A stretch of 64,000 bases of DNA from Anaerolineae bacterium (GTDB taxonomy: Bacteria > Chloroflexota > Anaerolineae > Fen-1058): positions 17,185 to 81,184 of the forward strand of contig DATEUJ010000144.1 of NCBI GenBank assembly GCA_035283185.1, in the 5' to 3' direction. The notes beneath the pieces are model-generated. The model saw only the letters and a list, made by a program, of their open reading frames with translations, was not told where the DNA came from and searched no databases. Shown piece after piece: positions 39,221-58,732 of this stretch (its first letter is position 1; the number at the start of each line of letters is the position of its first letter). The translations under genes were made by a program, and so were the position numbers.

Positions 39221-39369
39221 GCCTCGAAAATCGGGTCGTGGTGATTACAGGCGCAGCGGGCGGCCTGGGCCGCGTCGTGACGAAGGTTCTGGCCGCGCAG
39301 GGAACACGGCTGGCCCTGTTGGGCACTCATGTTGATCGATTGGAGAGACACTCATGGAACTCGCAATGA
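39217..39369 (+). pseudogene. short-chain dehydrogenase (SDR) 5' remnant, 50 codons
   Basis: MSLENRVVVITGAAGGLGRVVTKVLAAQGTRLALLG has the Rossmann TGxxxGxG motif and then terminates. Overlaps the ribA stop and the gnd start. Confidence 0.5.
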
Positions 39370-40264
39370 TCGGATTGGGCAAGATGGGCGCGAACATGAC
39401 GCGCCGATTGTTGAAAGGCGGCCATCGCGTCGTGGTGTTCGATCCGCGCGCCGTAGCCGTGCAGGAGTTGGCCGGCGAGGGCGCGGTCGGCGCGGCCTCA
39501 CTCGCCGAGTTGGTCAGCCGCTTGAGCACGCCGCGCAGCGTGTGGGTCATGGTGCCATCGGGCCAGATCACGGAAGACACGGTTCAATCGCTCGCCGGAT
39601 TGTTATCGGCCGGCGACACTATCCTCGACGGCGGCAACTCCAACTACAAGGACTCACAGCGGCGTGCAGCCGCCTTGGCATCACAGGGTCTGCACTTCGT
39701 TGACGTCGGTACGAGCGGCGGCATCTGGGGATTGGCCGAAGGTTACAGCTTGATGATCGGCGGCGAAGAAGACGTCGTCGAGCATCATCGACCGATCTTC
39801 GAGACCCTCGCTCCGGCGCGCGATCGCGGTTGGGGCTACGTCGGGCCGAGCGGCGCCGGCCACTTCGTCAAGATGATCCACAACGGCATCGAATACGGTC
39901 TGATGCAGGCCTACGCCGAAGGCTTTGCGATCATGAAAGCCAAGAAGGACTTCGGTCTCAAGCTGGGCCATATTGCCGAAATCTGGCGCTATGGCAGCGT
40001 GGTGCCTCGTGGCTGCTCGACCTGACGGCCCTCGCCCTGAGCGAAGACGAAGAGTTGAGCGGCATCAGAGCCTGGGTGCCCGATTCGGGTGAAGGCCGGT
40101 GGACGGTCTTCGAGGCGGTCGATCTGGATGTCGCCGCGCCGGTTATCACTACCGCGCTGCAGCGGCGCTTGCGATCGCGCGAGACGGAGCCGTATTCCGA
40201 TAAACTCCTGGCGGCGTTGCGCAATCAGTTCGGCGGACACGCCGTCAAGCGCGCGGAGGGCTGA
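39354..40264 (+). pseudogene. gnd: 6-phosphogluconate dehydrogenase (short YqeC/Gnd-like type) with a 1-nt frameshift near 40005
   Basis: Frame 1 reads MELAMIGLGKMGANM...IAEIWRYGSVV, then PRGCST-stop. The homologous continuation SWLLDLTALAL...FGGHAVK is in the next frame (ORF 39830..40264). gtggtgCCtcgtgg looks like an Arg codon that lost one base. Confidence 0.75.
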
Positions 40265-41727
40265 TGGCTGATTCGACGACGATCGTGATCTTCGGTGCGT
40301 CGGGCGATCTGACGCAGCGCAAGCTCATCCCGGCACTCTTCAATCTATTCCGCAAGCAACGCCTGCCCGCCAACTTTCGCATCGTGGGATTTGCCACCAC
40401 CCCCTGGCAGGATGCGGACTTTCGCGCGGCGATGCGAGCAGGTGTTGAGCAACACGCCGCGCACCAGTTTACCGCTGAACAATGGGCGGCCTTTGAAGCG
40501 CGCCTGTTCTATCGAGCGGGCGGCTTCACGGAAGCGGCCGACTTCGCTCGATTGGCAACCACCTTGACTGAGCTGGAGGGCAGCCCGGCCGATCGGTTGT
40601 ATTACCTCGCCGCGCCGCCGCGCTTCTACGCCGACATCGTGAATCGGTTGGGCGCAGCCGATATCGTGCATGAAGATGAAGGCTGGCGACGTGTGATCGT
40701 CGAGAAGCCGTTCGGCGCCGATCTGGCTTCGGCGCAGGCGCTCAATCAATCCATTCACCGCGTGCTCAACGAAAAGCAGATCTATCGGATCGATCATTAT
40801 CTGGGTAAAGAAACGGTGCAGAACATCCTGACCCTGCGCTTCGCCAACGCGATCTTCGAGCCGCTCTGGAATCGGAACTACACCGATCACGTGCAAATCA
40901 CAGTCGCGGAAACGGTCGGCGTAGGGCATCGCGCGGGTTACTACGATCGGGCGGGCGTGCTGCGCGACATGTTCCAGAATCATCTGCTGCAGCTTCTCGC
41001 CCTGACGGCGATGGAGCCGCCGGCCGCGTTCGACGCCGATTCACTGCGCAACGAAAAGGTCAAGGTACTCAAGGCGATTCGACCGATTCGGCCCGATCAG
41101 GTCGGGGGGCATACGGTGCGCGGACAGTATCGGGGATATTGCGAGGAAGAGGGCGTCGCCCCCGACTCGCACACGGCGACCTATGCCGCGCTGCGGCTCT
41201 TCATCGACAACTGGCGCTGGCAGGGCGTGCCCTTCTACCTGCGCTCCGGGAAAAGGCTGGCCGAGAAGACAACCGAGATTGTCATTCAGTTCAAGTGCCC
41301 GCCTCACCTGATGTTCCCGCTGCCGCCGGATCGCGAGATCACCGCCAACATCCTGGCGCTGTGCCTGCAGCCCGATGAAGGCATGCACCTGCGCTTTGAA
41401 GCAAAGGTGCCCGACACCGTGGCCGAGATGCGATCAGTCAACATGGAATTTCACTACGCCGATTCGTTTAGGCCGCGCGCGGTTCCGGAGGCTTATGAGC
41501 GACTCTTGCTCGACGCCTTGCATGGCGACGCCTCGCTATTCACGCGCAGTGATGGTATCGAGTTGGCCTGGAAATTCATTGATCCGATCTTGAAGGGTTG
41601 GGCGTCGCCTGCGACGCCACCGGCAGAATATGAGCCCGGCAGATGGGGGCCTGCTGAAGCCGATGAGTTGCTGACGAGGGATGGCCGAGCGTGGCTGCGG
41701 GGTTGTGGGCAACATCCAACCGCTTGA
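40264..41727 (+). CDS. zwf: glucose-6-phosphate 1-dehydrogenase
   Basis: IFGASGDLTQRKL, RIDHYLGKE and the overall length of 487 aa. Confidence 0.95.
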   Translation: MADSTTIVIFGASGDLTQRKLIPALFNLFRKQRLPANFRIVGFATTPWQDADFRAAMRAGVEQHAAHQFTAEQWAAFEARLFYRAGGFTEAADFARLATTLTELEGSPADRLYYLAAPPRFYADIVNRLGAADIVHEDEGWRRVIVEKPFGADLASAQALNQSIHRVLNEKQIYRIDHYLGKETVQNILTLRFANAIFEPLWNRNYTDHVQITVAETVGVGHRAGYYDRAGVLRDMFQNHLLQLLALTAMEPPAAFDADSLRNEKVKVLKAIRPIRPDQVGGHTVRGQYRGYCEEEGVAPDSHTATYAALRLFIDNWRWQGVPFYLRSGKRLAEKTTEIVIQFKCPPHLMFPLPPDREITANILALCLQPDEGMHLRFEAKVPDTVAEMRSVNMEFHYADSFRPRAVPEAYERLLLDALHGDASLFTRSDGIELAWKFIDPILKGWASPATPPAEYEPGRWGPAEADELLTRDGRAWLRGCGQHPTA

Positions 41728-44357: not shown

Positions 44358-45293
44358 ATGCCCCTGTCCAAGATCGTCGCGCTCGCGCGGCTGGCACGCC
44401 CGCACTTCCTGATCGGCACCAGTATCGCGTACCTCGTCGGTGCGCTGATGGCCCGGCGCGAAACCGGCACGTGGAACTGGACGGCGTTTGGCATCGGCCT
44501 GCTCGTCGTCTGGTCTGCCCAACTGGCCGCGCAGTTTTTCAACGAGTATTACGACCAGCCAACCGATCGGGCCACTCACCATCGCACTCCGTTCAACGGC
44601 GGCAGCGGCATGTTGATAGGTGGGAGAATGAAGCCCGAAGCCGCGCGATGGGCCGGGCGCGCGATGCTATTGCTTTCGACGGCGCTCTTTGTCGGCTCCA
44701 GCATATTGCCGTCGTTCAGTGTGGTGACGGCGATCATCTTCGGACTAGCGCTGATCGGCGCAGTCGGCTATTCAGCTCCGCCGTTATCGCTGGTCAACCG
44801 TGGCATGGGAGAGTCAGGCACTGCCATCATCGGCGCGCTGCTTGTGCCGCTGTTCGGCTACAACTTGCAGACCGGACAGGTCAGCTTGAAGTTACTTCTC
44901 ACCTGTCTGCCGTTCGCTGCGCTGATCTTCGCCAACATGCTCAACGTGGCCTTCCCAGACTACGACGCCGATCGCGTAACCGGCAAGCGCACGCTGGTGG
45001 TGATTCTCGGCCCGGATCGCGCGGCCCGGGTGTACGGTCTGCTGCTCATCGTAGGCTACGTCGCGCCGTGGCTTACGCTAGGCTGGGGATTGCCGCTCAT
45101 CGTGTTGCTGGCCGAGGCCGCGACGCTGCCGCTGGGGCTGCTCAGCCTCCGCGAAGTGCGGCGCGGCGGTTATCGGACGCCGGAGCGCTTCTGGCGAAAT
45201 ACACGGCTTGGTGTCAGCGCGGTCATGGCAGTAGGTGTGGCGGAAGCGATCGGTTTCTTGATCGCCGGTAGCGCTGCCCCAGCGGGTATATGA
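44358..45293 (+). CDS. UbiA-family prenyltransferase
   Basis: About 8-9 TM segments. NEYYDQPTDR and FPDYDADRVTGKRT are Asp-rich motifs. Confidence 0.75.
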   Translation: MPLSKIVALARLARPHFLIGTSIAYLVGALMARRETGTWNWTAFGIGLLVVWSAQLAAQFFNEYYDQPTDRATHHRTPFNGGSGMLIGGRMKPEAARWAGRAMLLLSTALFVGSSILPSFSVVTAIIFGLALIGAVGYSAPPLSLVNRGMGESGTAIIGALLVPLFGYNLQTGQVSLKLLLTCLPFAALIFANMLNVAFPDYDADRVTGKRTLVVILGPDRAARVYGLLLIVGYVAPWLTLGWGLPLIVLLAEAATLPLGLLSLREVRRGGYRTPERFWRNTRLGVSAVMAVGVAEAIGFLIAGSAAPAGI

Positions 45294-45311
45294 CCGGCGA
45301 GGAAGACGCAC

Positions 45312-46385
45312 ATGCGAAGGCTCTTTCTTCTGTCAATAGCTGTTCTCACCGCGTGCGCACCGGCGACGCCTGCGCCGGCTACATCGATGCCGCGCGTCAC
45401 GGATGCGGAGACGCCTCTGCCTCCCGCATCCCTCGCGCCCAACGATTCCATTGCGCCGGCTGACCAACCCTCTGTTGCTCCCACTACTCCGCCGGTAAAG
45501 AAGAACGTCCGCCTGCCGGACACGAACGAATACTACTTCTCCCAGTTGCTCGCCTTCGATGGCATCCCGCCCGTGTACGATCCGAAGTTCATGGCGGCGA
45601 ATGAAGCGCCGCTGATCGACGACGAACTCGTCATCGGCATCACGCTTGACGGCCAGGCCAAAGCCTATCCCGTCACCGTCCTGAGCTATCGCGAGATGGT
45701 CGACGACGAGCTGGCCGGCATTCCTATCCTCGTCACCTGGTGACCGCTGTGCTACACCGGTCTCGTGCACGACCGGAGGATTGATGGAACGCCCCATACG
45801 TTCGGGAACGCGGGCGCGCTGTTCATGAACGCAATGACGTGGTACGACCACGAGACGCGATCGATCTGGTCGCAGCCGTGGGGGCGGGCGATCCAGGGGC
45901 CGCTCAAGGGCGTCGAGCTATTCCTGCTGCCGTCACAGGTCACCACCTGGGCGAACTGGAAGAACGAGTACCCCGAAACCCTGGTCATGGTCAACGACGC
46001 CGAGTTGTTTGGGCTGCGTCAGGGGTTCAGTCCGAATTTCGTCATCGGCCTCCTGCTGGATGGACGTGCGAAGGCGTACAGATACGCCGACGTGACCGCT
46101 GCCGGTGTCGTGAATGACACCCTGGGCGACGTCCCGATCGTCGTGTGGGCCGCCGATGAGAACTTCCAGGCTTACATCCGGCAGGCCGATGGGCGCACGC
46201 TGACATTCAACGCCGAGGGTGATAGACTGATCGACGTCGAGACAGGCTCGACTTGGGATGTCGGGCGAGGGCTGGCGACGGCGGGATCTCTGCGAGGGCA
46301 GGCGCTTCAACCGGTGCCTGGGTCGACCGCCTACGACTGGGCCTGGCTCGATTTCTATCCCGATTCGGAGTTCTATGCCCCATAA
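45312..46385 (+). CDS. DUF3179-family lipoprotein with in-frame TGA (putative Sec144) replacing the first Cys of the CPLC motif
   Basis: Lipobox VLTACAP. ...GIPILVTW-TGA(45741..45743)-PLCYTGLVHDRRIDG... continues in the same frame. The Cys paralog at 57488..58732 reads ...GVPLTVTFCPLCNTAIAFERTVDG... and aligns on both sides of the TGA. Confidence 0.75.
45757..45776 (+). promoter_or_regulatory. candidate SECIS hairpin CCGGTC-TCGTGCAC-GACCGG
   Basis: Perfect 6-bp stem starting 13 nt after TGA 45741..45743. Confidence 0.45.
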
Positions 46386-46414
46386 CGTGGCCTGCCTTCA
46401 TTCCTGCGCGTTCA

Positions 46415-46501
46415 GTAGATCACGATTTCGTAGTGACGACTTCAGTCGTCCCAGCAAAGAGGCGACTAAAGTCGCTACTACGAGTCAAAGCCGTGATCTA
46501 C
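46415..46501. other. 87-nt multi-stem structured intergenic element (possible ncRNA or REP/MITE-like element)
   Basis: P1 is GTAGATCACG/CGTGATCTAC (10 bp). P2 is TCGTAGT/ACTACGA (7 bp). P3 is the hairpin GACGAC-ttca-GTCGTC. P4 is the hairpin GCGAC-taaa-GTCGC. All stems are perfect. Confidence 0.5.
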
Positions 46502-46572
46502 TGAGATTCGTGAAGATTCGCGTCTTTCGCGGATAAAGATAGGCACGATCACCGGCGACGCCCGAGGTGGTG

Positions 46573-47274
46573 ATGATGGATCCCGAACTGCTCGCGCGCT
46601 ACAATTACGACGAGTTTGTCACTGTCAAATTTGAGCCGTGGCTCAACTTCGAGGCCAGCCCGCCGCTCGGCCATCCGGCGCCCGACTTTCCACTGTGGCG
46701 CCTGGATGGTAGCGAGACGCCCTTTAGCGAAGTCTGGTCGCACCACACATATACCATCGTCGAGTTCGGCAGTTTCACCTGACCATACTGTGGGATGGCG
46801 GCGCCATCCATGAACGCGATCGCCGAACGTCACAAGGAGCGCGGCGTCGGTTCGATCTTTCTCTACACACATGAGGCGCATCCAGGCGAGTATTACCCGC
46901 ACCACACGTCGATGGAACAGAAACTGCGGCACGCCCGCGACCTGCGCGACAAACTCGGCGTGACGCGCCCGATCCTGGTCGATGCACTCGACGGCGCATG
47001 CCACCGCGCTTATGGATCGATGCCGAATATGAGTTGGATTCTCACTCGATCGGGCGTGCCGATTTACAAATCGGACTGGACGGACGCGCGAAGTGTCGAG
47101 AACGCGATCGATTACTTTCTGGATGTGAACGAGCGGCGGCGTTCCGGTGAACGGCAGGCCCCATTTCGCGTCGAACGCCTCGATTTCCGAACGCAAGACC
47201 GTGAAGCCTTCTACAAGGGCCTGGAGCGCAACGGTCCGAAGGCCGTGCGGGAGTATCGAGAAGCGTTCGGCTAG
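46573..47274 (+). CDS. iodothyronine-deiodinase-like thioredoxin-fold protein with in-frame TGA (putative Sec70)
   Basis: ...YTIVEFGSFT-TGA(46780..46782)-PYCGMAAP...IFLYTHEAHPGE. The deiodinase family signature is FGSxT(U/C)Pxx ... Y(I/V)xEAHP. Confidence 0.72.
46793..46809 (+). promoter_or_regulatory. candidate SECIS hairpin GGATGGC-GGC-GCCATCC
   Basis: Perfect 7-bp stem (or 6 bp with a 5-nt G-rich loop), starting 10 nt after TGA 46780..46782. Confidence 0.5.
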
Positions 47275-47427
47275 GCCCTGTCGATTTCCTGCGAACTGTG
47301 CTATCCTTAGCGCTTATCCGAAAACGCAGACGGGCCGCTTCGCGCCATGCCCGTTCAGAGCAGCACATGGGGATGCGCGGCTACGAGGTTTTCGGATAGG
47401 CTCTTAATCCCGATCCAGGCCCCGCAG

Positions 47428-49797
47428 ATGCTCCGTTTCCGCAATCTCCGAACCAAACTCGTCCTGGCCTTCCTCGTCACCGTGCTCGTGCCGCTGATCG
47501 GCACCGGGCTTTACGGCAACTGGACGACCAGCCGCACGTTGCAGGCGCAGGCGCTCGACGCCGCCCGCGCCGACTTGCGATTGCGCGTCGAGCAGATCGG
47601 AGGCTATCTGGCCGGTGTGCGCGAAGACCTGCTCTTCCTCAGCCGCCTCGATTCGCTGGCCACACTGCTCGCCGCCGATCAACCCGCTCCCCCTCTCCTG
47701 GTCGACCTGCAGGCCGACTTCGTCGCCTTCGCCGCTACGCATCCCGGCGCCTTCCAGACTCGATACATCGACGCTAGCGGCATGGAAATCGTGCGCGTCG
47801 ATTCCACGCCGAACGGCATCGAGGTCGTCGCCGCCAACCGTCTGCAAAACAAAGCCGACCGCTACTACTTCGCAGCGGCGATGGCGTTGCCTGCAGGTGG
47901 CGTGCATGTCTCGCCCGTCGACCTGAACCGCGAATTCGGCGTGATCCAGGTTCCGCACACGCCCACCATCCGCTACGCCACGCCCGTCTTTCATCCCGAT
48001 GGCTCGCGCGCCGGTCTGGTGATCCTGAACCTGTACGCAGAACCGTTCCTGCGTTTCGCCCGTTCGGCTGCGGGCGGCGACGCCTTTCTCGTGCTGGTGG
48101 ACGAATCGGGCCACTACCTGGCACACCCCGACCGGTCGCGCGAGTGGGGTGGCCCCAACGACCTGAACACCGGTGCGGGCGCGTTCGTCGATTACCCGCA
48201 CGTCTGGCCGGAGATCGCCCGCGAGTCATCCGGCGTCTATTCGCCAGCGCCCGACAACTGGTTGAGCGCACTGATCGAGGACGTGTTGCCGATCAGCCTG
48301 GTGGGCGGGGATGATCAGACCGGCAACAGAGTGTTGGTCTACGACGCGGTGCAACTTGATCCGGAGCGTGGTCCGCGCTGGAGGTTGCTCTATGACGAGC
48401 CACGTGTCAATCTGTTCGCCTCGGTGTCCGCCTTTCGCATCACAGCGATCACCATTCTCGCCGCCGCCGCCCTCGCCGCGCTACTGATGGCCATCGGCCT
48501 GGCGCGCAGCCTGACTGCGCCCATTCTCGCGCTCACCGAAGACGTGCGGCGCTTTGGGCGAACGAAGTTGCTTCGCCGCCTGGCGGATAGCCCGCCAGGC
48601 ACGGCCCGCGTGCGCGACGAGATCGACGAACTCGAGGCGACCTTCAACGACATGTCGGCGGCGCTCGAGCAACACCTCGAACGACTGTCACTGCTCAATC
48701 GGGCCGGCCATCACATCGCCGCGCGCCTGGAGCGACCGACCGTTCTGGAAGCGGCGGCGCGCGCGGCGGAGACACTCTTTCCAGCCGAATACAGCGTGAT
48801 CTGGTTCACAACGGAACGCGGCGACACGATCACTCACACGCATGGCCATGCGCCATGGGAGGCTTACCGCGCCGATCCCGGCCTGAATGCGCTCTTCGCC
48901 GCCGCGATTGCCGACGGCGAGTGGCGCACGACGCGCCTGCCCGATGCTCAAACGCCGTCCGGATTCCTGTGCTGCGTGCCGCTGTGTGTGAGCAGGCGGC
49001 CTGGCCTGATCGAACTTTATGGTTCGAGTCCGGCGCTGGCCGATCCGGCGACCGGCAACCTGCTCGCCGCGCTCAGCGTGCAAATCTCCATCGCGCTGGA
49101 GAATGCCGAGTTGGTCGAGCGGCTGGCCGAGCGCCGTGCCGAACTGCAGGCACTGGTCGAGCAACTCATTACCGCGCAGGAAGAAGAACGGCGCGTCGTC
49201 GCCTACGATATTCACGACGGCTTGATCCAGATGCTCGTCGGCGCGCGCCTGCAGCTCAGCAACTTCCAGGCCGATCGCGCCCGCGACCCGAATCGGGCCG
49301 AGGTGGCGCTGCGGAAAGGCCTCGACGAACTGGCTGCCGCCATTGCCGAAGCCCGCCGCGTCATCGAGGGCCTGCGCCCGGCCGCGCTGGACGATCTCGG
49401 TCTCGTCACCACGCTTCGGCAATACGCTGAGGAAACCGCTTCGGCGTGCGGCTGCCGGCTGGAATTCGCCGCCATCCCGCCCAACCTGCGCGTGCCCCCG
49501 CCGGTTGAGACGACGGCGTTTCGCATCGCACAGGAAGCCATCACCAACGCGCGCAAGTACGCCGGCGCGCAGCGGCTGCAGGTCGCGCTCACGCTCGGCG
49601 ACGGCGCGCTCGTCGTCGAAGTTCGGGACGACGGCGGCGGCTTCGATCCGAGCGCCGTCGCTGGAGGGCGCGAGGTGGGCCTGACCGGCATGCGCGAGCG
49701 AGCGCGTTTGCTCGGCGGAGAATGCACCATCGAAAGCGCGCCGGGAACGGGCACTGTCGTGCGCGCCACACTGCCACTACTGGCCACTGACCACTGA
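47428..49797 (+). CDS. sensor histidine kinase (extracytoplasmic sensor, HAMP, GAF-like, HisKA_3 + HATPase; NarX/LiaS class)
   Basis: ATG 47428. N-terminal TM, a large periplasmic domain and a second TM. RVVAYDIHDGLIQ (HisKA_3 H-box). C-terminal NARKYA...GGFD...GLTGMRERA. Confidence 0.85.
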   Translation: MLRFRNLRTKLVLAFLVTVLVPLIGTGLYGNWTTSRTLQAQALDAARADLRLRVEQIGGYLAGVREDLLFLSRLDSLATLLAADQPAPPLLVDLQADFVAFAATHPGAFQTRYIDASGMEIVRVDSTPNGIEVVAANRLQNKADRYYFAAAMALPAGGVHVSPVDLNREFGVIQVPHTPTIRYATPVFHPDGSRAGLVILNLYAEPFLRFARSAAGGDAFLVLVDESGHYLAHPDRSREWGGPNDLNTGAGAFVDYPHVWPEIARESSGVYSPAPDNWLSALIEDVLPISLVGGDDQTGNRVLVYDAVQLDPERGPRWRLLYDEPRVNLFASVSAFRITAITILAAAALAALLMAIGLARSLTAPILALTEDVRRFGRTKLLRRLADSPPGTARVRDEIDELEATFNDMSAALEQHLERLSLLNRAGHHIAARLERPTVLEAAARAAETLFPAEYSVIWFTTERGDTITHTHGHAPWEAYRADPGLNALFAAAIADGEWRTTRLPDAQTPSGFLCCVPLCVSRRPGLIELYGSSPALADPATGNLLAALSVQISIALENAELVERLAERRAELQALVEQLITAQEEERRVVAYDIHDGLIQMLVGARLQLSNFQADRARDPNRAEVALRKGLDELAAAIAEARRVIEGLRPAALDDLGLVTTLRQYAEETASACGCRLEFAAIPPNLRVPPPVETTAFRIAQEAITNARKYAGAQRLQVALTLGDGALVVEVRDDGGGFDPSAVAGGREVGLTGMRERARLLGGECTIESAPGTGTVVRATLPLLATDH

Positions 49798-49826
49798 CCA
49801 CTGTTCACTGTTCACTGTTCACTGCC
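49785..49826. repeat. six in-phase tandem heptamers CACTGNN spanning the kinase stop codon up to the regulator start codon
   Basis: cactgac x2, cactgtt x3 and cactgcc x1 at 49785-49826. ATG of the response regulator is at 49827. Confidence 0.9.
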
Positions 49827-50480
49827 ATGACTGAACCGATCACCGTCCTCATCGCCGACGATCACGGCGTGGTGCGCGAAGGACTGCGCGCCATGCTGGA
49901 ACGCGAAGGGTTGCGCGTAGTGGGCGAAGCCCGCACCGGGCGTGAAGCCATTGCCCTCGCTGGCTCCCTCGCGCCCAAAGTCGTCCTCCTCGACATCCGC
50001 ATGCCCGACCTCGACGGCCTACAAGCCCTCGCCGCCATCAAAGCCGCTCGCCCTGAGACCAGCGTCATCATGCTCACCTCGCATGCCAACCCCGGCTACT
50101 TGGCCCGCGCTGTAGCGCACGGGGCCGCCGGATTCCTCTCAAAGGAAATTGACCCCGACCGCATCCCTGCCGCCGTGCGCGCCGCCGCCACCGGCGACCA
50201 TCTCCTCGACCCGGCGCTCCTGCGTGCTGCACTGGCCTCGGCCGCTGTCGAAGCGCCGCTCACCCCGGAATCCGACATCCCACCCGCCGACCTCCTCACC
50301 GAGGCCGAAACGCGCGTCCTCCGCCTGCTGGCCGAGGGGCTGGACAATGAGACGATCGCCGCCTCACTCAGCCTGAGCGTCAACACAGTCAAAACCCATG
50401 TCCGGCATATTTTCGAGAAACTGAACGTTTCCGACCGGACGCAGGCGGCGCTATGGGCGGTGCGGCATGGGATAAAGTAA
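49827..50480 (+). CDS. NarL/FixJ-family response regulator
   Basis: VLIADDHGVVREGL...VVLLDIRMPDLDG. C-terminal LTEAETRVLRLLAEGLDNETIAASLSLSVNTVKTHV. Confidence 0.9.
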   Translation: MTEPITVLIADDHGVVREGLRAMLEREGLRVVGEARTGREAIALAGSLAPKVVLLDIRMPDLDGLQALAAIKAARPETSVIMLTSHANPGYLARAVAHGAAGFLSKEIDPDRIPAAVRAAATGDHLLDPALLRAALASAAVEAPLTPESDIPPADLLTEAETRVLRLLAEGLDNETIAASLSLSVNTVKTHVRHIFEKLNVSDRTQAALWAVRHGIK

Positions 50481-50594
50481 ATCATCCTCTGGTATGACCC
50501 TTTTCACCCCTCAGCATGATGTCCGGCGCGGGTGCTTGCTGCAATATACAGTTGCAGGTTAACCACCCATATCCATTCTCCGGAGCCCCGCGCC

Positions 50595-51788
50595 ATGAGT
50601 CTGAGACACGCCCTGTTACTTCTGGTCACCCCATTGGCAGTCGGCGCTCTTGTCTTGGCGGCCTGCGCCTCATCCACTCCCGCCGGGCCGGCACCGGCCT
50701 TCACGCTGCCCGAAGCGCCGGCCATCAGAATCACGCCGCTACCTCCGCTGCCGGCGGAGCTGCCACCCGAAGCGGCCTTCCCTTCTGTGGCGGACCCGGC
50801 GTGGGAAAAGCTACCGGCTGCCCAAGTCGCGTTGGGCAAATACCTCTTCTTCGACGATGCCCTCTCCGGCGACCAGAAGTTGAACTGCGCAACCTGCCAC
50901 CAGCCGGACCGGGCCTGGATCGATGGCCTGCCTCTCTCCGTCGGCTACCCCGGCAGCCTCTACTTTCGTAACACCCCGACCCTGCTGAACGTCGGTGACA
51001 AGCCGCTCCTCTACTGGGACGGGCGTCTCGATGGGAATGACCTGCCGACCGTGATACGCGACCACATCGCTGAGGCCCACTTTATGAACGCCGACGGTCT
51101 GCTGGTCGTCGAGCGGCTGAATCAGAAGCCGCAATACGCGGAACTCTTTAGGGCAGCCTACGGCGGCGGGCCGAGTTATGGGCGCATGCTTAACGCCGTT
51201 GCCGCCTACGTTGGATCGCTGTACTCCCCGCCCAGCGCGTACGACCGCTACCGAGCCGGTGAGGCAGAAGCGCTCTCTGCCCAGGCGCAAGCAGGCCTGG
51301 CCCTCTTCGAAGGGAAAGCTCGCTGCGCCACCTGCCACAGCGGCACGCTTTTCAGCGACGGCCAATACCACAATCTGGGACTGCCTCAAAATCCGGATAT
51401 CTTCGACGAACCGCTGCGGCACATCACCTTCCGTCGATTCTTCCGGACGCTGGGCGTGCCTGACTATTCCAAACTGGAGGTAGACGTTGGGCGGTATGCT
51501 CTGACCCAGGATAATTCGGACAGCGGCTACTTCCTCACACCCGCGCTGCGGGAGGTCGGCCGGACCGCGCCATACATGCACAACGGCATTTTCGTCACGT
51601 TGGAAGAGGTCGTCGCCTTCTACAACGCCGGAGGCGGAGAGAGTTCGGAACTGTCGCCACTCAATCTCACACCGGCCGAGCAGGCGGCGCTGGTAGCCTT
51701 CCTTGAAAACCTGAGCGGTGAGCTGGTGTCGGTCGAACCGCCCGAAGCGCCTGCCTATCAGCTCACGATTCTGGGAGGCGACCAATGA
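50595..51788 (+). CDS. di-haem cytochrome c peroxidase (CCP/MauG family), lipoprotein
   Basis: Lipobox LVLAACAS. Haem motifs CATCH and CATCHSG. PYMHNG. Confidence 0.85.
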   Translation: MSLRHALLLLVTPLAVGALVLAACASSTPAGPAPAFTLPEAPAIRITPLPPLPAELPPEAAFPSVADPAWEKLPAAQVALGKYLFFDDALSGDQKLNCATCHQPDRAWIDGLPLSVGYPGSLYFRNTPTLLNVGDKPLLYWDGRLDGNDLPTVIRDHIAEAHFMNADGLLVVERLNQKPQYAELFRAAYGGGPSYGRMLNAVAAYVGSLYSPPSAYDRYRAGEAEALSAQAQAGLALFEGKARCATCHSGTLFSDGQYHNLGLPQNPDIFDEPLRHITFRRFFRTLGVPDYSKLEVDVGRYALTQDNSDSGYFLTPALREVGRTAPYMHNGIFVTLEEVVAFYNAGGGESSELSPLNLTPAEQAALVAFLENLSGELVSVEPPEAPAYQLTILGGDQ

Positions 51789-52918
51789 CCCGCCGGAATC
51801 TAATTGTGCTCGGACTGGTCGCCTTCGTCATTGTAGCGGGCATTGTCTACATGGTCGTGCAGCAGAGTCGGCTGCCAGTTGAGCTCACGGGCGGGCTGGA
51901 ACCGTTGCCTGACGTTCCCATCCCGCCTGACAACCCGATGAGCGAGGCCAGGATCGAGTTGGGTCGATACCTCTTCTTCGATCAGCGCATGTCCGGCGAC
52001 GGCAGCACCTCGTGCGCTATCTGCCACGTACCGGAGCTCGGCTGGGGGAGTGGCTCGGCGATTTCACCAGGCTATCCTGGCACATCGCACTGGCGCAACT
52101 CGCAGACTGTGATCAATAGTGCCTATCTGCCCAAGTTGTTTTGGGCCGGCGAATCTCTCAGCCTGGAGAAGCAGGCAGAATCCGCCTGGACCGGAAACTT
52201 GGCTGGCAATCTGGACCCGGCGATGGCCGAGGAACGGATGCGACAGATACCGGAGTACGTCGGCGTGTTCGAGGAAGTCTTCGGCGCTCCGCCGAATTGG
52301 GGTGACGCGCTGAAGGCGGTTGCGGCCTTTGAGCGCACGCTCGTCACGCAGAAAGTTCCTTTCGACGCCTATGCCCAAGGCGACCGGGGCGCCCTCTCGG
52401 CGGAGGCATTGCGCGGACTGGCGCTGTTCCAGGGCAAGGCGAACTGCATTGCGTGCCACAACGGCCCCTTGTTCACCGACAACAGCTTCCATAATCTCGG
52501 CGTTCCCCGCAACCCGCTATACGACTCGAACATCAATGTCCAGGTTGCGCTGCGTTACCAGCATCTCTCGCGGGGCGTGCCCGAAGAAGCGTATCAGGCC
52601 GCAGACCGCGACCTGGGACTGTATTACACGACCAAGCGCGAAGAGGACATGGGCGAGTTTCGCACGCCACCGTTGCGTTACGTGTGCTACACCGCCCCCT
52701 ACATGCACAACGGCGTGCTGAGCACCGTGGAGGAGGTCGTCGCCTTCTACAGTGCCGGCGGGGGCGATGACCCCGGCAAAGACCCGCTGATGCAGCCCCT
52801 CGATCTCACTGCGCCTGAGCAAGCCGACCTGGTCGCCTTCTTGCACAGCCTGTGCGGCGACGAAATCATCATCGAAGCCCCGGAACTGCCGCCCTATGCC
52901 GTGATCAGTAATCGGTAG
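51785..52918 (+). CDS. di-haem cytochrome c peroxidase (CCP/MauG family), second copy
   Basis: N-terminal TM anchor. CAICH and CIACHNG. PYMHNG. The start overlaps the previous stop. Confidence 0.85.
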   Translation: MTRRNLIVLGLVAFVIVAGIVYMVVQQSRLPVELTGGLEPLPDVPIPPDNPMSEARIELGRYLFFDQRMSGDGSTSCAICHVPELGWGSGSAISPGYPGTSHWRNSQTVINSAYLPKLFWAGESLSLEKQAESAWTGNLAGNLDPAMAEERMRQIPEYVGVFEEVFGAPPNWGDALKAVAAFERTLVTQKVPFDAYAQGDRGALSAEALRGLALFQGKANCIACHNGPLFTDNSFHNLGVPRNPLYDSNINVQVALRYQHLSRGVPEEAYQAADRDLGLYYTTKREEDMGEFRTPPLRYVCYTAPYMHNGVLSTVEEVVAFYSAGGGDDPGKDPLMQPLDLTAPEQADLVAFLHSLCGDEIIIEAPELPPYAVISNR

Positions 52919-52988
52919 CCAGTCATCAGTGCCACTGATCACGATTCATGGCTTACTGATCACTGACCACCGGCTACTGACCACTCAC
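52901..52988. repeat. cluster of (T/C)ACTGA(T/C)CAC motifs and their inverted copy upstream of aioB
   Basis: gtgatcagta at 52901-10 (inverted). cactgatcac at 52933-42. tactgatcactgaccac at 52954-70. tactgaccactcac at 52975-88. Related to the CACTGAC heptamers at 49785. Confidence 0.6.
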
Positions 52989-53002
52989 TTCGGAGGTTCT
53001 CG

Positions 53003-53557
53003 ATGACCGATCAGACCTGCGATCTGAACGCAGCCCTCACCCGCCGGCACTTTCTGTTCATGAGCGGCGCGGCGCTCGTCACACTGGCGATACCCAGGTT
53101 CCTGTGGGGCGTGCCCGGGGCCGAAGCGATGCGCCTGCAATTGGCCGAGTACCCGCGCCAGAAGGTCGGGAAACTGAGCGCACTGAAGGTCGGCCGGCCG
53201 GTTCCGTTCCAGTATCCCTTCGAGCATCCCAACTGTGCCAACTTCATCTTCAAGCTGGGTGTTCCGGCGGGCGGCGGCATCGGCCCGCAGAAGGACGTGG
53301 TCGCCTTTAACAGCCTGTGCCCGCATCAGGGCGGCCCGCTGGCTGGGCGGCTCAACGCGCAGCATCAAGTCCTCGGCCCGTGCCCGCTGCATCTGAGCAC
53401 GTTCGACCTCACCCGGCACGGCATGGTCGTCAGCGGCCACGCGACCGAAGGCCTGCCCCAGATCGTGCTGGAACTAAGCGGCGACGACATCTATGCCGTC
53501 GGGGCGATGGGCCTGGTGTATGGCTTTCACAGTAATCTGGTTGATCCAAAGGCGTAA
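53003..53557 (+). CDS. aioB: arsenite oxidase small (Rieske) subunit with Tat signal
   Basis: TRRHFLFMSGAAL (twin-Arg). Rieske CPHQGG ... CPLHLS. Directly precedes the Mo-pterin subunit. Confidence 0.8.
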   Translation: MTDQTCDLNAALTRRHFLFMSGAALVTLAIPRFLWGVPGAEAMRLQLAEYPRQKVGKLSALKVGRPVPFQYPFEHPNCANFIFKLGVPAGGGIGPQKDVVAFNSLCPHQGGPLAGRLNAQHQVLGPCPLHLSTFDLTRHGMVVSGHATEGLPQIVLELSGDDIYAVGAMGLVYGFHSNLVDPKA

Positions 53558-53605
53558 TTGGTAAGTGGTAATTACCAATTACGTATTCCCAACTGGGAGT
53601 GCGCT

Positions 53606-56248
53606 ATGACCAACTACACCCCTCAAGACAAAGTTCCCCTCCCGCCTTCGGGCGCAAAGGTGTACACGACGGCGTGTGATTACTGCATCGTGGCCTGCGG
53701 TTACAAGACTTACGTTTGGCCTGAAGGCCAAGAGGGCGGCCCCAAGGCAAGTGAAAACGCGCTCGGCCTCGACTTCCCCACCGGCGTTCTCAGCGGCTGG
53801 ATCAGCCCTAACCAGCACAACCTCGTCAGCGTGGACGGCAAGCTGCATCACATCGTCGTCGTGCCGGACTTTCAAACCACAGTCGTCAACAGGGGCGGCA
53901 ACCACTCGATCCGGGGAGGAACATTGGCGCTCAAGTGCTATAACCCGAACGCGCCAACGCGCGACCGACTGCTGTACCCGCAGGCTCGCGTCAACGGCAA
54001 ACTGACTCGCGTGGACTGGGACACGGCCCTCGACGTGATGGCCGCCGTGAGCAAGCACGTGCTAAAGAACTACGGCGAGTCGGGCTGGGCCATGAAGACC
54101 TACTCCTACGAGTTCTTTGAGAACACCTACGCTATCTCCAAACTGGCCTTCGGCGCGATCGGCACTCCGGCCTTTGCCGTACACGACAAACCCAGCATGG
54201 GCTCGGACACCGGCGGGGTGGATGACGCCGGCATCATCACCTTCAGCGCCTCGTATCAGGATTGGGCCGACGCCGACGTGATCTACATCTCAGGCACCGA
54301 CCCCTTCGAGACTAAGACCATCGTCTTCACCTCGTGGATGATGGGCAAGCCGAAACTGATTTTCGCCCTGCCGCGCCGCACCACGGGTGTGGCTTACGCG
54401 GAAGCCAACGACGGCCTCTTCCTGCAAGTCATCCCTGGCACCGACACTCTCCTACACCTTGCCATCAACCGCATCATCCTGGAGAACGGCTGGGAAGACG
54501 CCGAGTTCGCGGAGGACTGGATCGCCAGCACGTGGGAAATTGACGCCGGCATGGGCCGCGGCCCGCGCAACACGCCCTGGCAGTGGCGCACCACCTGGAG
54601 CCAATTTGGGACCGACTTCGCCGGATACAAGGACTGGCTGCTGAACTACGATCTCGCCCGACTGGAAAACGCTGCCCGTGTCACCGGCGTCTCGGCAGAA
54701 AAGATCGTTCAGGCCACAGAAATGCTCACCGGCGCGGGCGGTCCGCGCCCCAAGGCCTCGTTCGCCTTCGAGAAGGGCAATTACTGGAGCAACAACTACC
54801 TCAACACGGCGTCGTTCGCGGCGATGGGCCTACTGTGCGGCGCGGGCAACCGGCCCGGTCGTGTCATCAGCCGCTTGGGCGGCCATCAGCGCGGCTGGAT
54901 GGGCGCGGCCGGCTATCCGATGGACAAGTCGCCGGAGAAATTGCCGGGCCGCCGCAAAGTGGAACTCGACCTCGACCGTTGGGTGGCAGCGGGCAACGTC
55001 CGTTTCGCCTGGGTAATCGGCACGACGTGGACGGCGGCAATGGCCGCCAGCCAGGAACTGGCCGACTCCTTCCGTAAGCTCACGGTCGAGAATCCGAACC
55101 AAATCAAGTCCGCCAACAAGCAGGCGATCGTGGACGCACTGATCCGGCGCGTCGACAGCCGCGGCATGGTGCTGGTGGACTCCGACATATATCCGGTGGA
55201 ACCCATCAACACCGAGTTCGCCGACATCGTCCTGCCCGCCGCCGCGTGGGGCGAGCACGACGCGACCCGCGCCAACGGCGAGCGCCGCCTGCGCCTCTAC
55301 AGCAAGTTCTACGATCCACCGGGTGAGGCCAAGCCCGATTGGTGGGCCATCAGCCGCTTCGCGCAGAAGATGGGCTTCAGTGGCTGGGACTGGGAAACGG
55401 ACAACGACGTGTTCGAGGAGGCCGCGCGCTTCAGCCGGGGCGGCGTGCTGGATTACTACGTGCTGGCGTGGCACGCGAAACAGATCGGCCAGAAGGGCCA
55501 CGAGGTTCTGCGCGAACTCGGCACGCAGGGCATCCAGACGCCCATTCGCTGGGTGAACGGCCAGATGGTCGGCACCGTCCGCTTGCACGACTCGACGCTC
55601 GAGCCCGGCACGCCGGAAGGTCCCACCGTCCACGCCAAATGGCTGACGCACTTCAGTTCGCACTCCGGTAAGGCGCTGTTGCTCAAAAGCCCGTGGGAGC
55701 TGTTCAGCGACTTCTACGAACGCGTCACGCCCGACCCGGCCAGCGGCGAATTCTGGCTGACGAACGGGCGCATCAACGAACTCTGGCAGTCAGGGTTTGA
55801 CGACCACCGCAAGCCGTATATGCATAACCGCTGGCCGGATACGTGGGTGGAGATTCACCCGACGGACGCGGCAAAGTACGGCATCGAGAGCGGCGACGAA
55901 GTGCGTCTGTTCAGCGACGATATTCTGATCCAGACCGGCGGCTGGATTCGGGTGAAGGGCTACAAGTTTACCGATTTGGTGAAGGAGGGATTGATCACCA
56001 CCGGCAAAGGCGATGTGCGCGCCGTCGCCATCGTCTCGGAAGACGTGCGGCCTGGCGTGCTGTTCACCAATTTCCTGCATCCGGCCAGCCCGGCCAACTC
56101 GCTCGTCCACCGCGTGCCCGACCCTTTCGCCAACGTCCACCGATTTAAACTGGGCAAGGCGCAGATCGAGAAGATCGGCGAGTCGCCGTACAAGAAATCT
56201 CTGGAGGAGATGACCTTCAAGCCGCGCACGATCACCTTCACGGGTTGA
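53606..56248 (+). CDS. aioA: arsenite oxidase large (molybdopterin, 3Fe-4S) subunit
   Basis: ATG 53606 with GGGAG RBS. TTACDYCIVACGYKTYVWPEGQEGGP aligns by eye with the AioA N-terminus (C-x2-C-x3-C, ...KWPELQEGG). About 880 aa. Confidence 0.8.
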   Translation: MTNYTPQDKVPLPPSGAKVYTTACDYCIVACGYKTYVWPEGQEGGPKASENALGLDFPTGVLSGWISPNQHNLVSVDGKLHHIVVVPDFQTTVVNRGGNHSIRGGTLALKCYNPNAPTRDRLLYPQARVNGKLTRVDWDTALDVMAAVSKHVLKNYGESGWAMKTYSYEFFENTYAISKLAFGAIGTPAFAVHDKPSMGSDTGGVDDAGIITFSASYQDWADADVIYISGTDPFETKTIVFTSWMMGKPKLIFALPRRTTGVAYAEANDGLFLQVIPGTDTLLHLAINRIILENGWEDAEFAEDWIASTWEIDAGMGRGPRNTPWQWRTTWSQFGTDFAGYKDWLLNYDLARLENAARVTGVSAEKIVQATEMLTGAGGPRPKASFAFEKGNYWSNNYLNTASFAAMGLLCGAGNRPGRVISRLGGHQRGWMGAAGYPMDKSPEKLPGRRKVELDLDRWVAAGNVRFAWVIGTTWTAAMAASQELADSFRKLTVENPNQIKSANKQAIVDALIRRVDSRGMVLVDSDIYPVEPINTEFADIVLPAAAWGEHDATRANGERRLRLYSKFYDPPGEAKPDWWAISRFAQKMGFSGWDWETDNDVFEEAARFSRGGVLDYYVLAWHAKQIGQKGHEVLRELGTQGIQTPIRWVNGQMVGTVRLHDSTLEPGTPEGPTVHAKWLTHFSSHSGKALLLKSPWELFSDFYERVTPDPASGEFWLTNGRINELWQSGFDDHRKPYMHNRWPDTWVEIHPTDAAKYGIESGDEVRLFSDDILIQTGGWIRVKGYKFTDLVKEGLITTGKGDVRAVAIVSEDVRPGVLFTNFLHPASPANSLVHRVPDPFANVHRFKLGKAQIEKIGESPYKKSLEEMTFKPRTITFTG

Positions 56249-56660: not shown

Positions 56661-56954
56661 ATGCTCCAGATATATCCTGTCGGGGCACACAACCCGCACA
56701 AGAGAAGGACTCACACTGTGCGTCCGATCTGGCAGATCCTCACCCGCACAACGCATTCTCCAAACAGTGTGCTGACCTGTGAGGAATGCTTTGCGGCGCT
56801 GGAGTATCTGGCCGAGTTGATGGATGCAGATGTTGATCCGAAAGACCTGTGGCAGACCGCCCAACGCCATCTGGCGCGCTGTCCCGACTGCCGGGAGCAT
56901 CACGCAAAGCGTATCCGCGAACTGGAGTCGCGGCTGGCCGGAGGTCGAGGCTGA
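56661..56954 (+). CDS. orphan ZAS-type (zf-HC2) anti-sigma-like protein
   Basis: RHLARCPDCREHH matches H-x3-C-x2-C. An additional CEEC lies upstream. The stop overlaps the start of the next gene (TGATG). Confidence 0.55.
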   Translation: MLQIYPVGAHNPHKRRTHTVRPIWQILTRTTHSPNSVLTCEECFAALEYLAELMDADVDPKDLWQTAQRHLARCPDCREHHAKRIRELESRLAGGRG

Positions 56955-57484
56955 TGCTTCGCGTCGGTCAACCGGCACCCGACTTGCGCCTGCCAGGTCT
57001 GGACGGATCACCGATCGCACTGTCGGATTATCGAGGCCGACCGGTCGTGCTCGTCTTTCTGCGCCATCTCGGCTGACTGCCCTGCCGCGAGCACGCGATG
57101 CAGTTGCATCGCCGACGAGACGCAGTGCTGATGCTGAATGGCGAGGTATTGCTGATCACCTTTTCCAGCGCGGAGCAGGCGCGTCGCTGGCGGGACGAGA
57201 CTGGGATCGACTTTCCGTTGTTGCTCGATGCGAATCGGGCTGTCTATCGCGCTTATGGTCTACGGTCCTCGATCTGGCGCGTGTGGCAGCCTAAGGTGCT
57301 GGCGTATTACGCGCGAGCCTTGTTGCAAGGGCAGCGCTGGCGCGGCATCCGCGACGATCCGCACCAGTTGGGCGGCGATTTCGTTGTCGATGCCGCCGGG
57401 ATGTTGCGCTTCGCGCACCGGAGCGAAGACCCGACTGATCGCCCGGCAGTTGATTCGCTCTTGTCGGTACTTCGACAGATGTGA
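56954..57484 (+). CDS. peroxiredoxin-like 2 / AhpC-TSA_2 family protein with in-frame TGA (putative Sec41)
   Basis: MLRVGQPAPDLRL...GRPVVLVFLRHLG-TGA(57074..57076)-LPCREHAMQL... in the same frame. The family motif is F(L/V)RxxGCxxCR. Confidence 0.72.
57095..57112 (+). promoter_or_regulatory. candidate SECIS hairpin GCGATG-CAGTTG-CATCGC
   Basis: The palindrome gcgatgcagttgcatcgc starts 18 nt after TGA 57074..57076. Confidence 0.45.
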
Positions 57485-57487
57485 GGT

Positions 57488-58732
57488 GTGGATATGGGAC
57501 AAGTCGCAGTCAATCTACCTCGAATCACCTGGCTGATGATCTTCGGCGTGCTACTCACGGCCTGCGCGGGAGCAGCCACTGGCCCAACGCCGGCCGAGCC
57601 CCCGCTGCCCGCCCTGGCCCCGACCCAGACTTCCCAATCGACGAAAGCCCCTACGATGACTCCCTCGCCCTCTCTGGACGAGCCGCCGCCTGCGGGCGCG
57701 CAGTTCGAGTTCACCACCGACTTCAGCAAGCACGCGGTCTCGTACCGCGAAATCCTCTCGGGCGGACCGCCCAAGGATGGCATTCCCGCAATCGACGATC
57801 CCAAGTTCATCAGCGTCGAAGAGGCCAAACAGTGGCTGTTACCGGTCGAGCCGGTCATTCTCGTTCAAGTTGGCGACGACGCCCGCGCCTATCCACTGCA
57901 GATCCTGACCTGGCACGAGATCGTCAACGACGCCGTCGACGGTGTGCCGCTCACGGTGACGTTCTGTCCGTTGTGCAACACCGCCATCGCCTTCGAGCGG
58001 ACGGTCGACGGGCGCGTGCTCGACTTCGGCACGACCGGCCGGCTGCGCTACAGCAACCTGATCATGTATGACCGCCAGACCGAGACGTGGTGGCAGCAGG
58101 CCACCGGCGAGGCGATCGCCGGTGAGCTAACGGGGACGCGGCTGAAGTTCTATCCGGCCTCCATCATCGCCTGGGCCGATTTCAATACCCACCATCCCGA
58201 TGGCAAAGTGCTCTCGCGCGATACGGGCTTTGGTCGGGATTACGGGCGCAATCCGTATACTGGCTACGACGACGTGAACAGCTCGCCGTTCCTGTATCGC
58301 GGGCCGGAGACACCCGGCGCGCTGCCGGCTGTGGCGCGCGTGCTGACAATCGCCTTGAACGGCGAGGCAGTGGCTTACCCTTACGACGTGCTGCAGGACG
58401 TGCGCATGGTCAACGACACGGTCGGCGGGACAGAGGTCGTCGTGGTGTGGAAGGGAGGCACGGCTTCCGCGCTCGACACCAGCCGCATCGCCGACGGGCG
58501 TGATGTCGGCGCGGCGAGTGCGTACTCGCGTGTTCTCGACGGCGAGACACTGACTTTCTCCCTCGACGGCGGGCGAATCGTCGATGACCAGACCGGCAGC
58601 GAGTGGAATGTGCTCGGGCAGGCGGTCGGCGGAAAACTGGCGGGCAAATCGCTGACGCCTGTCGTCGCCATCAACCACTTCTGGTTCTCGTGGGCAGCCT
58701 TCAAGCCGGAGACGCGCATCTACCAACCGTAG
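57488..58732 (+). CDS. DUF3179-family lipoprotein (Cys form, CPLC)
   Basis: Lipobox LLTACAG. DGIPAIDDPKF, YPLQILTWHEIVND, VTFCPLCNTAI and MYDRQTETWWQQ. Confidence 0.8.
   Translation: MDMGQVAVNLPRITWLMIFGVLLTACAGAATGPTPAEPPLPALAPTQTSQSTKAPTMTPSPSLDEPPPAGAQFEFTTDFSKHAVSYREILSGGPPKDGIPAIDDPKFISVEEAKQWLLPVEPVILVQVGDDARAYPLQILTWHEIVNDAVDGVPLTVTFCPLCNTAIAFERTVDGRVLDFGTTGRLRYSNLIMYDRQTETWWQQATGEAIAGELTGTRLKFYPASIIAWADFNTHHPDGKVLSRDTGFGRDYGRNPYTGYDDVNSSPFLYRGPETPGALPAVARVLTIALNGEAVAYPYDVLQDVRMVNDTVGGTEVVVVWKGGTASALDTSRIADGRDVGAASAYSRVLDGETLTFSLDGGRIVDDQTGSEWNVLGQAVGGKLAGKSLTPVVAINHFWFSWAAFKPETRIYQP

Follow-up and report, generated by a model that had tools for sequence, protein, structure and literature searches.

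The deiodinase-like gene described here probably encodes a cytoplasmic, thioredoxin-fold selenoprotein of the PF00837 family acting as a selenol/thiol reductase in the defence against thiol-oxidative stress, which is the best explanation of the evidence taken as a whole. The gene lies in the window, the whole stretch of 64,000 nucleotides of Anaerolineae DNA that was analysed, directly after a second selenoprotein gene coding for a DUF3179 lipoprotein, and this arrangement recurs in related genomes.

Gene, reading frame and encoded protein

Features of the gene and of its surroundings are collected in Table 1. On translation, the frame contained exactly one in-frame TGA, at codon 70 (U70), and both signatures that the sequence-only reading had claimed for the joined ORF were found in it, FGSFT-U-PYC and LYTHEAHPGE. 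Relatives were sought in one genome per species; 214 genomes encode one, and 80 loci were fetched and compared. These come mostly from Chloroflexota (Anaerolineae, Ardenticatenaceae, Caldilineaceae and Chloroflexia), and some of the rest were assigned to Armatimonadota, Planctomycetota, Deinococcus and Rubrobacter. Within the phylum the gene is patchy, with a match in 11 of 300 sampled genomes. The full-length frame is conserved in the 80 other genomes.

The AF2 model of the protein showed a thioredoxin fold (mean pLDDT 78.9, pTM 0.73). Its N-terminus, MMDPELLARYNYDEF, is not hydrophobic and there is no N-terminal transmembrane anchor. Since the frame is closed just 5′ of the start, a signal peptide cannot be added, which shows the predicted location of the protein to be cytoplasmic.

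Table 1. Positions of the deiodinase-like gene, its elements and neighbouring genes in the window.
Feature	Position	Strand	Remarks
Sec-DUF3179 lipoprotein gene, upstream partner	45312–46385	+	PF11376, 222 bits; TGA 45741–45743, motif W-U-PLC
Putative ribosome-binding site	46564–46569	+	GAGGTG; 3–6 nt 5′ of the ATG codons; inferred from sequence
Deiodinase-like selenoprotein CDS	46573–47274	+	233 aa plus stop; alternative start ATG 46576
TGA, predicted selenocysteine U70	46780–46782	+	aligns with catalytic Sec170 of Dio3; TGA in 81/81 orthologs
Cys73 codon	46789–46791	+	pairs with Sec at +3 (UxxC); no variation among the 49 aligned subfamily sequences
SECIS hairpin	46793–46809	+	7-bp stem GGAUGGC/GCCAUCC, apical loop GGC; begins 10 nt 3′ of the UGA
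C143-H144-R145 codons	46999–47007	+	no variation in the subfamily; H144 almost always kept in the wider family
aioB	53003–53557		arsenite oxidase
aioA	53558–56248		arsenite oxidase; Rieske_3 and Molybdopterin domains listed for aioBA
AhpC/TSA-type Sec protein gene	56954–57484		in-frame TGA (G-U-LPC); 4 nt before the Cys-form DUF3179 gene
Cys-form DUF3179 lipoprotein gene	57488–58732		directly after the AhpC/TSA-type Sec gene

Family assignment and comparison with known proteins

As a single sequence, the protein matched PF00837 (T4_deiodinase) in Pfam with 31.3 bits against a cut-off of 27, with Redoxin scoring slightly higher (35.3 bits) and AhpC-TSA reaching 29.4 bits. A six-frame PF00837 scan of the whole genome did not detect the gene at E ≤ 0.001, and control genomes were also without matches. 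The ambiguity between Redoxin and deiodinase was resolved at the family level. PF00837 was matched by 45 of 46 divergent full-length relatives (28–45% identity), and when a profile of these divergent relatives was compared with solved structures over about 145 residues, mouse Dio3 (4tr3) was found with an E-value of 7.5e-25 and Dio2 (9h48) with 3.6e-19, followed by ResA/TlpA types at only 1e-13 and in the N-terminal half only. With PF00837 above its cut-off and Dio3 and Dio2 as the closest solved structures by profile, the assignment to the deiodinase family that had been proposed from the letters alone was borne out.

In Foldseek searches with the AlphaFold model, Dio3 4tr3 was the top match, and Dio3 and Dio2 had the highest query coverage (TMq 0.58), but ResA-type folds were statistically tied with Dio3. 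Fold comparison alone was therefore rejected as a discriminator between Dio3 and ResA-type oxidoreductases.

The proteins ResA, TlpA and DsbE (Foldseek E-values of about 3e-9, target-normalised TM-scores of 0.7–0.8) share with the window protein the thioredoxin fold, a two-residue-spaced pair at the start of helix 1 (C-x-x-C, here U-P-Y-C) and a conserved Pro before the following strand. They are exported or membrane-anchored and carry WCxxC, whereas the window protein has T-U-P-Y-C and neither signal peptide nor anchor, and the EAHP and AYG deiodinase motifs are absent from them. NCBIfam NF038285 ("deiodinase family protein", deiodinase_rel) gave a partial match of 53.9 bits (E 2e-14, residues 28–167), well below its cut-off of 250, with only the C-terminal half of the 347-position model aligned, which points to a different branch of the family.

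The Redoxin and AhpC-TSA scores, with AhpC-TSA also matched by 41 of the same 46 divergent relatives, speak for a peroxidase of the peroxiredoxin kind, in which Sec70 would reduce H2O2 or organic hydroperoxides via a selenenic acid resolved by Cys73. Peroxiredoxin and BCP structures also appear among the Foldseek matches, and deiodinases have been described with a peroxiredoxin-like mechanism (PMC11592359). Such a peroxidase is nonetheless unlikely. The peroxiredoxin signature PxxxTxxC is absent, the segment VEFGSFT-U having its Thr at −1 instead of −3 and no Pro at −7; the position of the peroxiredoxin catalytic Arg would correspond, in a manual alignment, to Asn152 in a conserved PNM motif; and peroxiredoxin structures fall far below Dio3 and Dio2 at the profile level.

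FGSFT-U-P aligns with FGSCT-U-P of Dio3, and the residues of the conserved deiodinase proton relay, S167, T169, Y197, E200, H202 and H219 in Dio3 numbering (PMC11592359), align with S67, T69, Y98, E101, H103 and H111, position 111 being Leu in many close orthologs that have a His at 110 instead. The relay and the EAHP and AYG motifs are thus common to the window protein and Dio1–3 (4tr3, 9h48) at an identity of about 20%. In contrast, the omega-loop of loop-D, which recognises the thyronine in the deiodinases, is 8–9 residues shorter here, with a deletion after HPGE and without the DGW segment; the N-terminal membrane anchor of the deiodinases is missing; and the resolving Cys, which is proximal at −2 or distal in the deiodinases, is found at +3. 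Since the hormone-specific parts (the full loop-D and the membrane anchor) are absent, the gene is, as judged by profile and alignment, a member of the PF00837 deiodinase family in the Pfam sense that shares the catalytic core, but not an iodothyronine deiodinase.

The conserved core and relay (S67, T69, U70, Y98, E101, H103, H111), and the fact that the nearest solved relatives are deiodinases, would also suit a true reductive dehalogenase whose selenolate strips an aromatic compound of its halogen (formally as I+ or Br+), with Cys73 resolving the selenenyl halide. This is rather improbable given the shortened thyronine-recognising loop, the thiol-redox nature of the recurrent neighbours, among which no recurrent halogen-metabolism genes were found, and the different, general redox function expected by the authors who defined the family (PMC1088965).

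Subfamily features and proposed mechanism

In the 49-sequence subfamily alignment, C73 and C143-H144-R145 are invariant among close orthologs and the Sec column is occupied by Sec in at least 90%. Upstream of U70, the invariant residues are Y10, N11, Y12, W23, E64–S67 and T69. The subfamily is further marked by an N-terminal YNY motif and a helical C-terminal extension of about 60 residues. In most members of the wider family the motif reads FGSxT-C-P, and both the +3 Cys and C143 are missing. Across the family, only E101 and D137 are kept throughout, and Y98, H103, P104, H144, G148, P151 and W169 nearly always.

In the best-supported reading, a selenol/thiol reductase, the selenolate of Sec70 would attack an oxidised or electrophilic substrate (disulfide, sulfenic acid or peroxide, for example). 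The adduct would next be resolved by Cys73, at +3, to give an intramolecular selenenylsulfide, and a system of the thioredoxin or glutaredoxin/thioredoxin-reductase type would re-reduce it. The enzyme would thereby contribute to thiol-oxidative stress defence. It would often be co-expressed with a DUF3179 lipoprotein of the Sec or Cys form, and an ECF sigma factor would control it in some lineages. We infer this redox cycle from the invariant U-x-x-C, the established chemistry of the thioredoxin fold and the thiol-redox neighbours. Since the +3 Cys is mostly absent in the wider family, the enzyme could also work by a 1-Sec mechanism, with Sec as the only redox residue and the thiol supplied from outside.

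Pairing with DUF3179 and recurrent neighbours

The Sec-DUF3179 gene, with its own TGA, was confirmed directly upstream of the deiodinase-like gene, where the sequence-only reading had placed it. Of the 80 loci, 28 have a DUF3179 gene no more than 4 kb away. In 15 of these 28 it is the TGA form, located upstream and in the same orientation, within about 150 nt in 14, and the gap between the Sec-DUF3179 and deiodinase-like genes in relatives is 4–150 nt. Orthologs of the second, Cys-form DUF3179 of the window occur in about 13 loci, and several loci have both forms. The genome holds only two DUF3179 genes; both are in the window, and each adjoins a thioredoxin-fold selenoprotein gene.

Other neighbours recur as well. 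In about 12 of the 80 loci, an ECF sigma factor and a small HxxxCxxC protein are encoded directly upstream; the latter had no Pfam match and is presumably an anti-sigma factor. YjeF_N was found in 11 of the 80 loci, a glutaredoxin-thioredoxin-reductase (Grx-TrxR) fusion in 10, a small Trx-like protein in 9, a VTT/DedA membrane protein in 8 and a pyridine-nucleotide disulfide oxidoreductase in 6.

The association was also considered from the side of DUF3179. At 29 DUF3179 loci sampled across the phylum, thioredoxin-fold families were not among the 25 most frequent neighbour families (of 71) in a scan that left out TGA-split ORFs shorter than 85 aa, and the commonest neighbours were Crp-type regulators (8 of 29 loci). 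A general rule joining DUF3179 to a thioredoxin-fold gene was therefore rejected; following this negative reverse test, the pairing is taken as a property of the deiodinase-like subfamily and not of DUF3179 generally. Separately, in a genome where the deiodinase-like gene is absent (G065, locus L124, 312–1683), a DsbD_TM/CcdA-type membrane electron-transfer gene was observed directly 5′ of a TGA-containing DUF3179 gene. This neighbour hints that DUF3179 might be an extracytoplasmic thiol-redox protein.

One proposal is that Sec-DUF3179 and the deiodinase-like selenoprotein work together as a dedicated redox module of two selenoproteins, not described before. Its UxxC reductase in the cytoplasm and its UxxC lipoprotein outside it would deal with one specific oxidative or electrophilic stress across the membrane, joined in some lineages by the Cys-DUF3179 paralog and by the ECF sigma/HxxxCxxC pair. 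It is put forward tentatively, as a possibility that is more doubtful than probable. Since the DUF3179 partner is an exported lipoprotein and the deiodinase-like protein is predicted to be cytoplasmic, a direct exchange of electrons between them is not obvious.

Arsenite oxidase neighbourhood

The genes downstream of the deiodinase-like gene had been described as arsenite-oxidase regulatory genes. This description is unproven. Encoded next to the gene are a HisKA_3 kinase and a LuxR-type regulator, in a neighbourhood that is not conserved with the gene. The region 5′ of aioBA (within 47428–56248) contains a dCache/GAF/HisKA_3 kinase, the LuxR-type regulator and two CCP_MauG dihaem peroxidase genes, and a sigma-54-type AioSR pair is not what precedes aioBA here. 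The aioBA genes lie 6 kb further downstream, behind the two peroxidase genes. Among the 80 loci, the kinase had weak matches in 7 and the aio genes formed no recurrent cluster. A link of the gene to arsenite oxidase was therefore rejected, since its surroundings here, with kinase, regulator, peroxidases and aio genes, are not conserved with it.

The same observations bear on a metal or metalloid protein tied to the arsenite oxidase cluster, which would bind As(III) or a soft metal via Sec70, Cys73 and Cys143. The invariance of C73 and C143 in the subfamily, together with H144 and a Sec column of at least 90%, and the presence of aioBA 6 kb downstream in the window are consistent with such binding, but the lack of a conserved aio, kinase and peroxidase neighbourhood and the absence of C143 from the wider family make it very improbable.

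Selenocysteine insertion at UGA70

TGA occupies the U70 column in 81 of 81 sequences (the window and 80 orthologs, all from species-level genomes), and codons 1–69, 5′ of the TGA, are kept in frame across the 80 other genomes. Elsewhere in the window TGA is an ordinary stop, closing zwf at 41727 and the kinase gene at 49797, which indicates a genome without reassigned TGA.

The region after the UGA was compared in the 81-sequence alignment. The two arms of the hairpin (46793–46799 and 46803–46809) are paired in 98.9% of cells, and sliding the 3′ arm by 1–3 columns, as a control, gave pairing in only 29–60% of cells. Three pairs were changed on both sides (AU to CG six times, GC to CG twice and GC to AU once), and G-U wobbles occur at other pairs. 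None of 500 column shuffles attained the observed pairing and covariation values. The compensatory A-U to C-G change costs two residues (Met to Leu and Ser to Ala) and preserves the pair. In addition, the four-fold degenerate codons at +4 to +9, in the hairpin, have an entropy of 0–0.74 bits versus 1.6–1.8 bits for Gly, Ala and Pro codons elsewhere in the gene, with nearly frozen codons (GGG 73/75, GCG 81/81, GCG 62/62, CCA 72/78 and TCC 62/74). The synonymous-site constraint is confined to the hairpin.

When the sequence 3′ of the UGA was folded singly (MFE), the hairpin did not stand out (z −0.42), so that its support comes from the comparison across genomes, and an Rfam search of 45000–48000 found no matching family. 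The SECIS candidate that had been picked out at this position was upheld by the covariation and by the synonymous-site constraint.

The hairpin is degraded in relatives that have Cys (TGT) or Phe (TTC) instead of Sec; one contig with TGG at the Sec column retains it. A Cys (TGT) homolog (P0002) is 80% identical to the window protein. Among database relatives, Cys, Trp, Leu or Phe at the Sec column is rare. Trp and Phe were considered as possible misreadings of a recoded TGA, which was rejected because real TGG and TTC codons are present in the DNA. As a separate observation, some full-length relatives with Phe (TTC, confirmed in the DNA) or Leu (L094/L095, 5001–5735; P0004 and P0005) combine a retained +3 Cys with a decayed hairpin; they are apparently variants without the catalytic residue.

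The Sec machinery, whose absence the sequence-only reading had named as refuting it, is fully encoded in the genome. A tRNA-Sec was found with 71.7 bits and anticodon tca, and selA, selB and selD are also present. The selA gene is split over two contig ends (C47:4–1044 and C185:1–264) of the 6.1-Mb assembly, which consists of 244 contigs and has an estimated contamination of 7.6%. The selD gene (C130:29374–30309) has an in-frame TGA, so that SelD is itself a predicted selenoprotein in this genome. Taken with the conserved frame and hairpin, the comparison shows UGA70 as a codon predicted to be recoded as selenocysteine, followed by a hairpin built like a bacterial SECIS element.

In 113 of the 120 best database entries, public gene callers annotate only the C-terminal part, as fragments of 154–161 aa starting at M75 or M80, just 3′ of the UGA; these calls are cut at the UGA and the active site is therefore absent from the records. 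The corresponding explanation, that there is no selenoprotein and that the TGA is a true stop or a sequencing error in a broken gene or between two small genes, can practically be dismissed in view of the same-column TGA in 81 independent assemblies, the 69 upstream codons in frame, the covarying hairpin, the 80% identical Cys homolog and the full Sec machinery.

Repeats and other observations in the window

The 187-nt spacer between the two selenoprotein genes (46386–46572) contains a near-perfect palindrome of about 95 nt (46412–46506), and the MFE of the spacer is −82 kcal/mol (z −6.8). In BLAST, the palindromic element matched the genome about 50 times, at 75–94% identity and spread over roughly 40 contigs. 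Being dispersed in the genome, it is a REP/MITE-like repeat inserted in the gene pair and not a dedicated regulatory RNA. Just 3′ of the deiodinase-like gene, an inverted repeat, cttatccgaaaac ... ggttttcggatagg, was observed at 47290–47410. The genome contains about six related copies of it (73–87% identity), and in folding stability it does not exceed shuffled sequences. In another part of the window, a gnd-like ORF (39354–40025) contains the NAD_binding_2 domain, but its match to the 6PGD C-terminal domain stops after the first 28 positions, which would fit a truncated or frameshifted gnd.

Relation to previous work and significance

The family is not new. In the 2005 selenoproteome of the Sargasso Sea, a "deiodinase-like protein, PF00837" was listed among the selenoprotein families of bacteria; Cys homologs and bacterial SECIS elements were described for it, and a redox function unrelated to thyroid hormones was proposed (PMC1088965). 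In reviews of 2022 and 2026, the motif of the deiodinase-like protein is given as UxxC and that of DUF3179 as UxxC/T (PMC9312934, PMC13188914). The Cys at +3, at first sight unusual, is thus part of the catalogued motif of the bacterial family; it does set the protein apart from the animal deiodinases and from most Cys-containing wider relatives. The PF00837 match, the UxxC motif and a SECIS element with a small G-containing apical loop are all shared with the catalogued family, and the subfamily of the window differs in being centred on Chloroflexota, in the invariant C143-H144-R145 and in the helical C-terminal extension. The literature searched yielded no biochemical study of a bacterial deiodinase-like member, the matches being to the unrelated flavoprotein iodotyrosine deiodinase. 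With family and motif catalogued for two decades, the gene is largely ordinary and current knowledge is not overturned.

The pairing with Sec-DUF3179 is not mentioned in PMC1088965, PMC9312934 or PMC13188914. Operons with two selenoproteins are listed in the last of these, namely Prx with a SelW-like protein, a Prx-like with an AhpD-like protein, grdAB, SAO and Tso. They consist of two adjacent selenoprotein genes on the same strand, as here, where both members carry U-x-x-C, but the list is without a pair of Sec-DUF3179 and deiodinase-like genes. The recurrent arrangement of a Sec-DUF3179 gene followed by a Sec-deiodinase-like gene may therefore be new.

These results have three modest consequences for the family. 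Its members are systematically truncated in public annotation. The retention of Sec in all 81 genomes, in a protein with the deiodinase relay and no hormone-binding loop, would make it a compact soluble model for ancestral deiodinase chemistry. Finally, the pairing with DUF3179 offers a shared and testable context for the function of both proteins.
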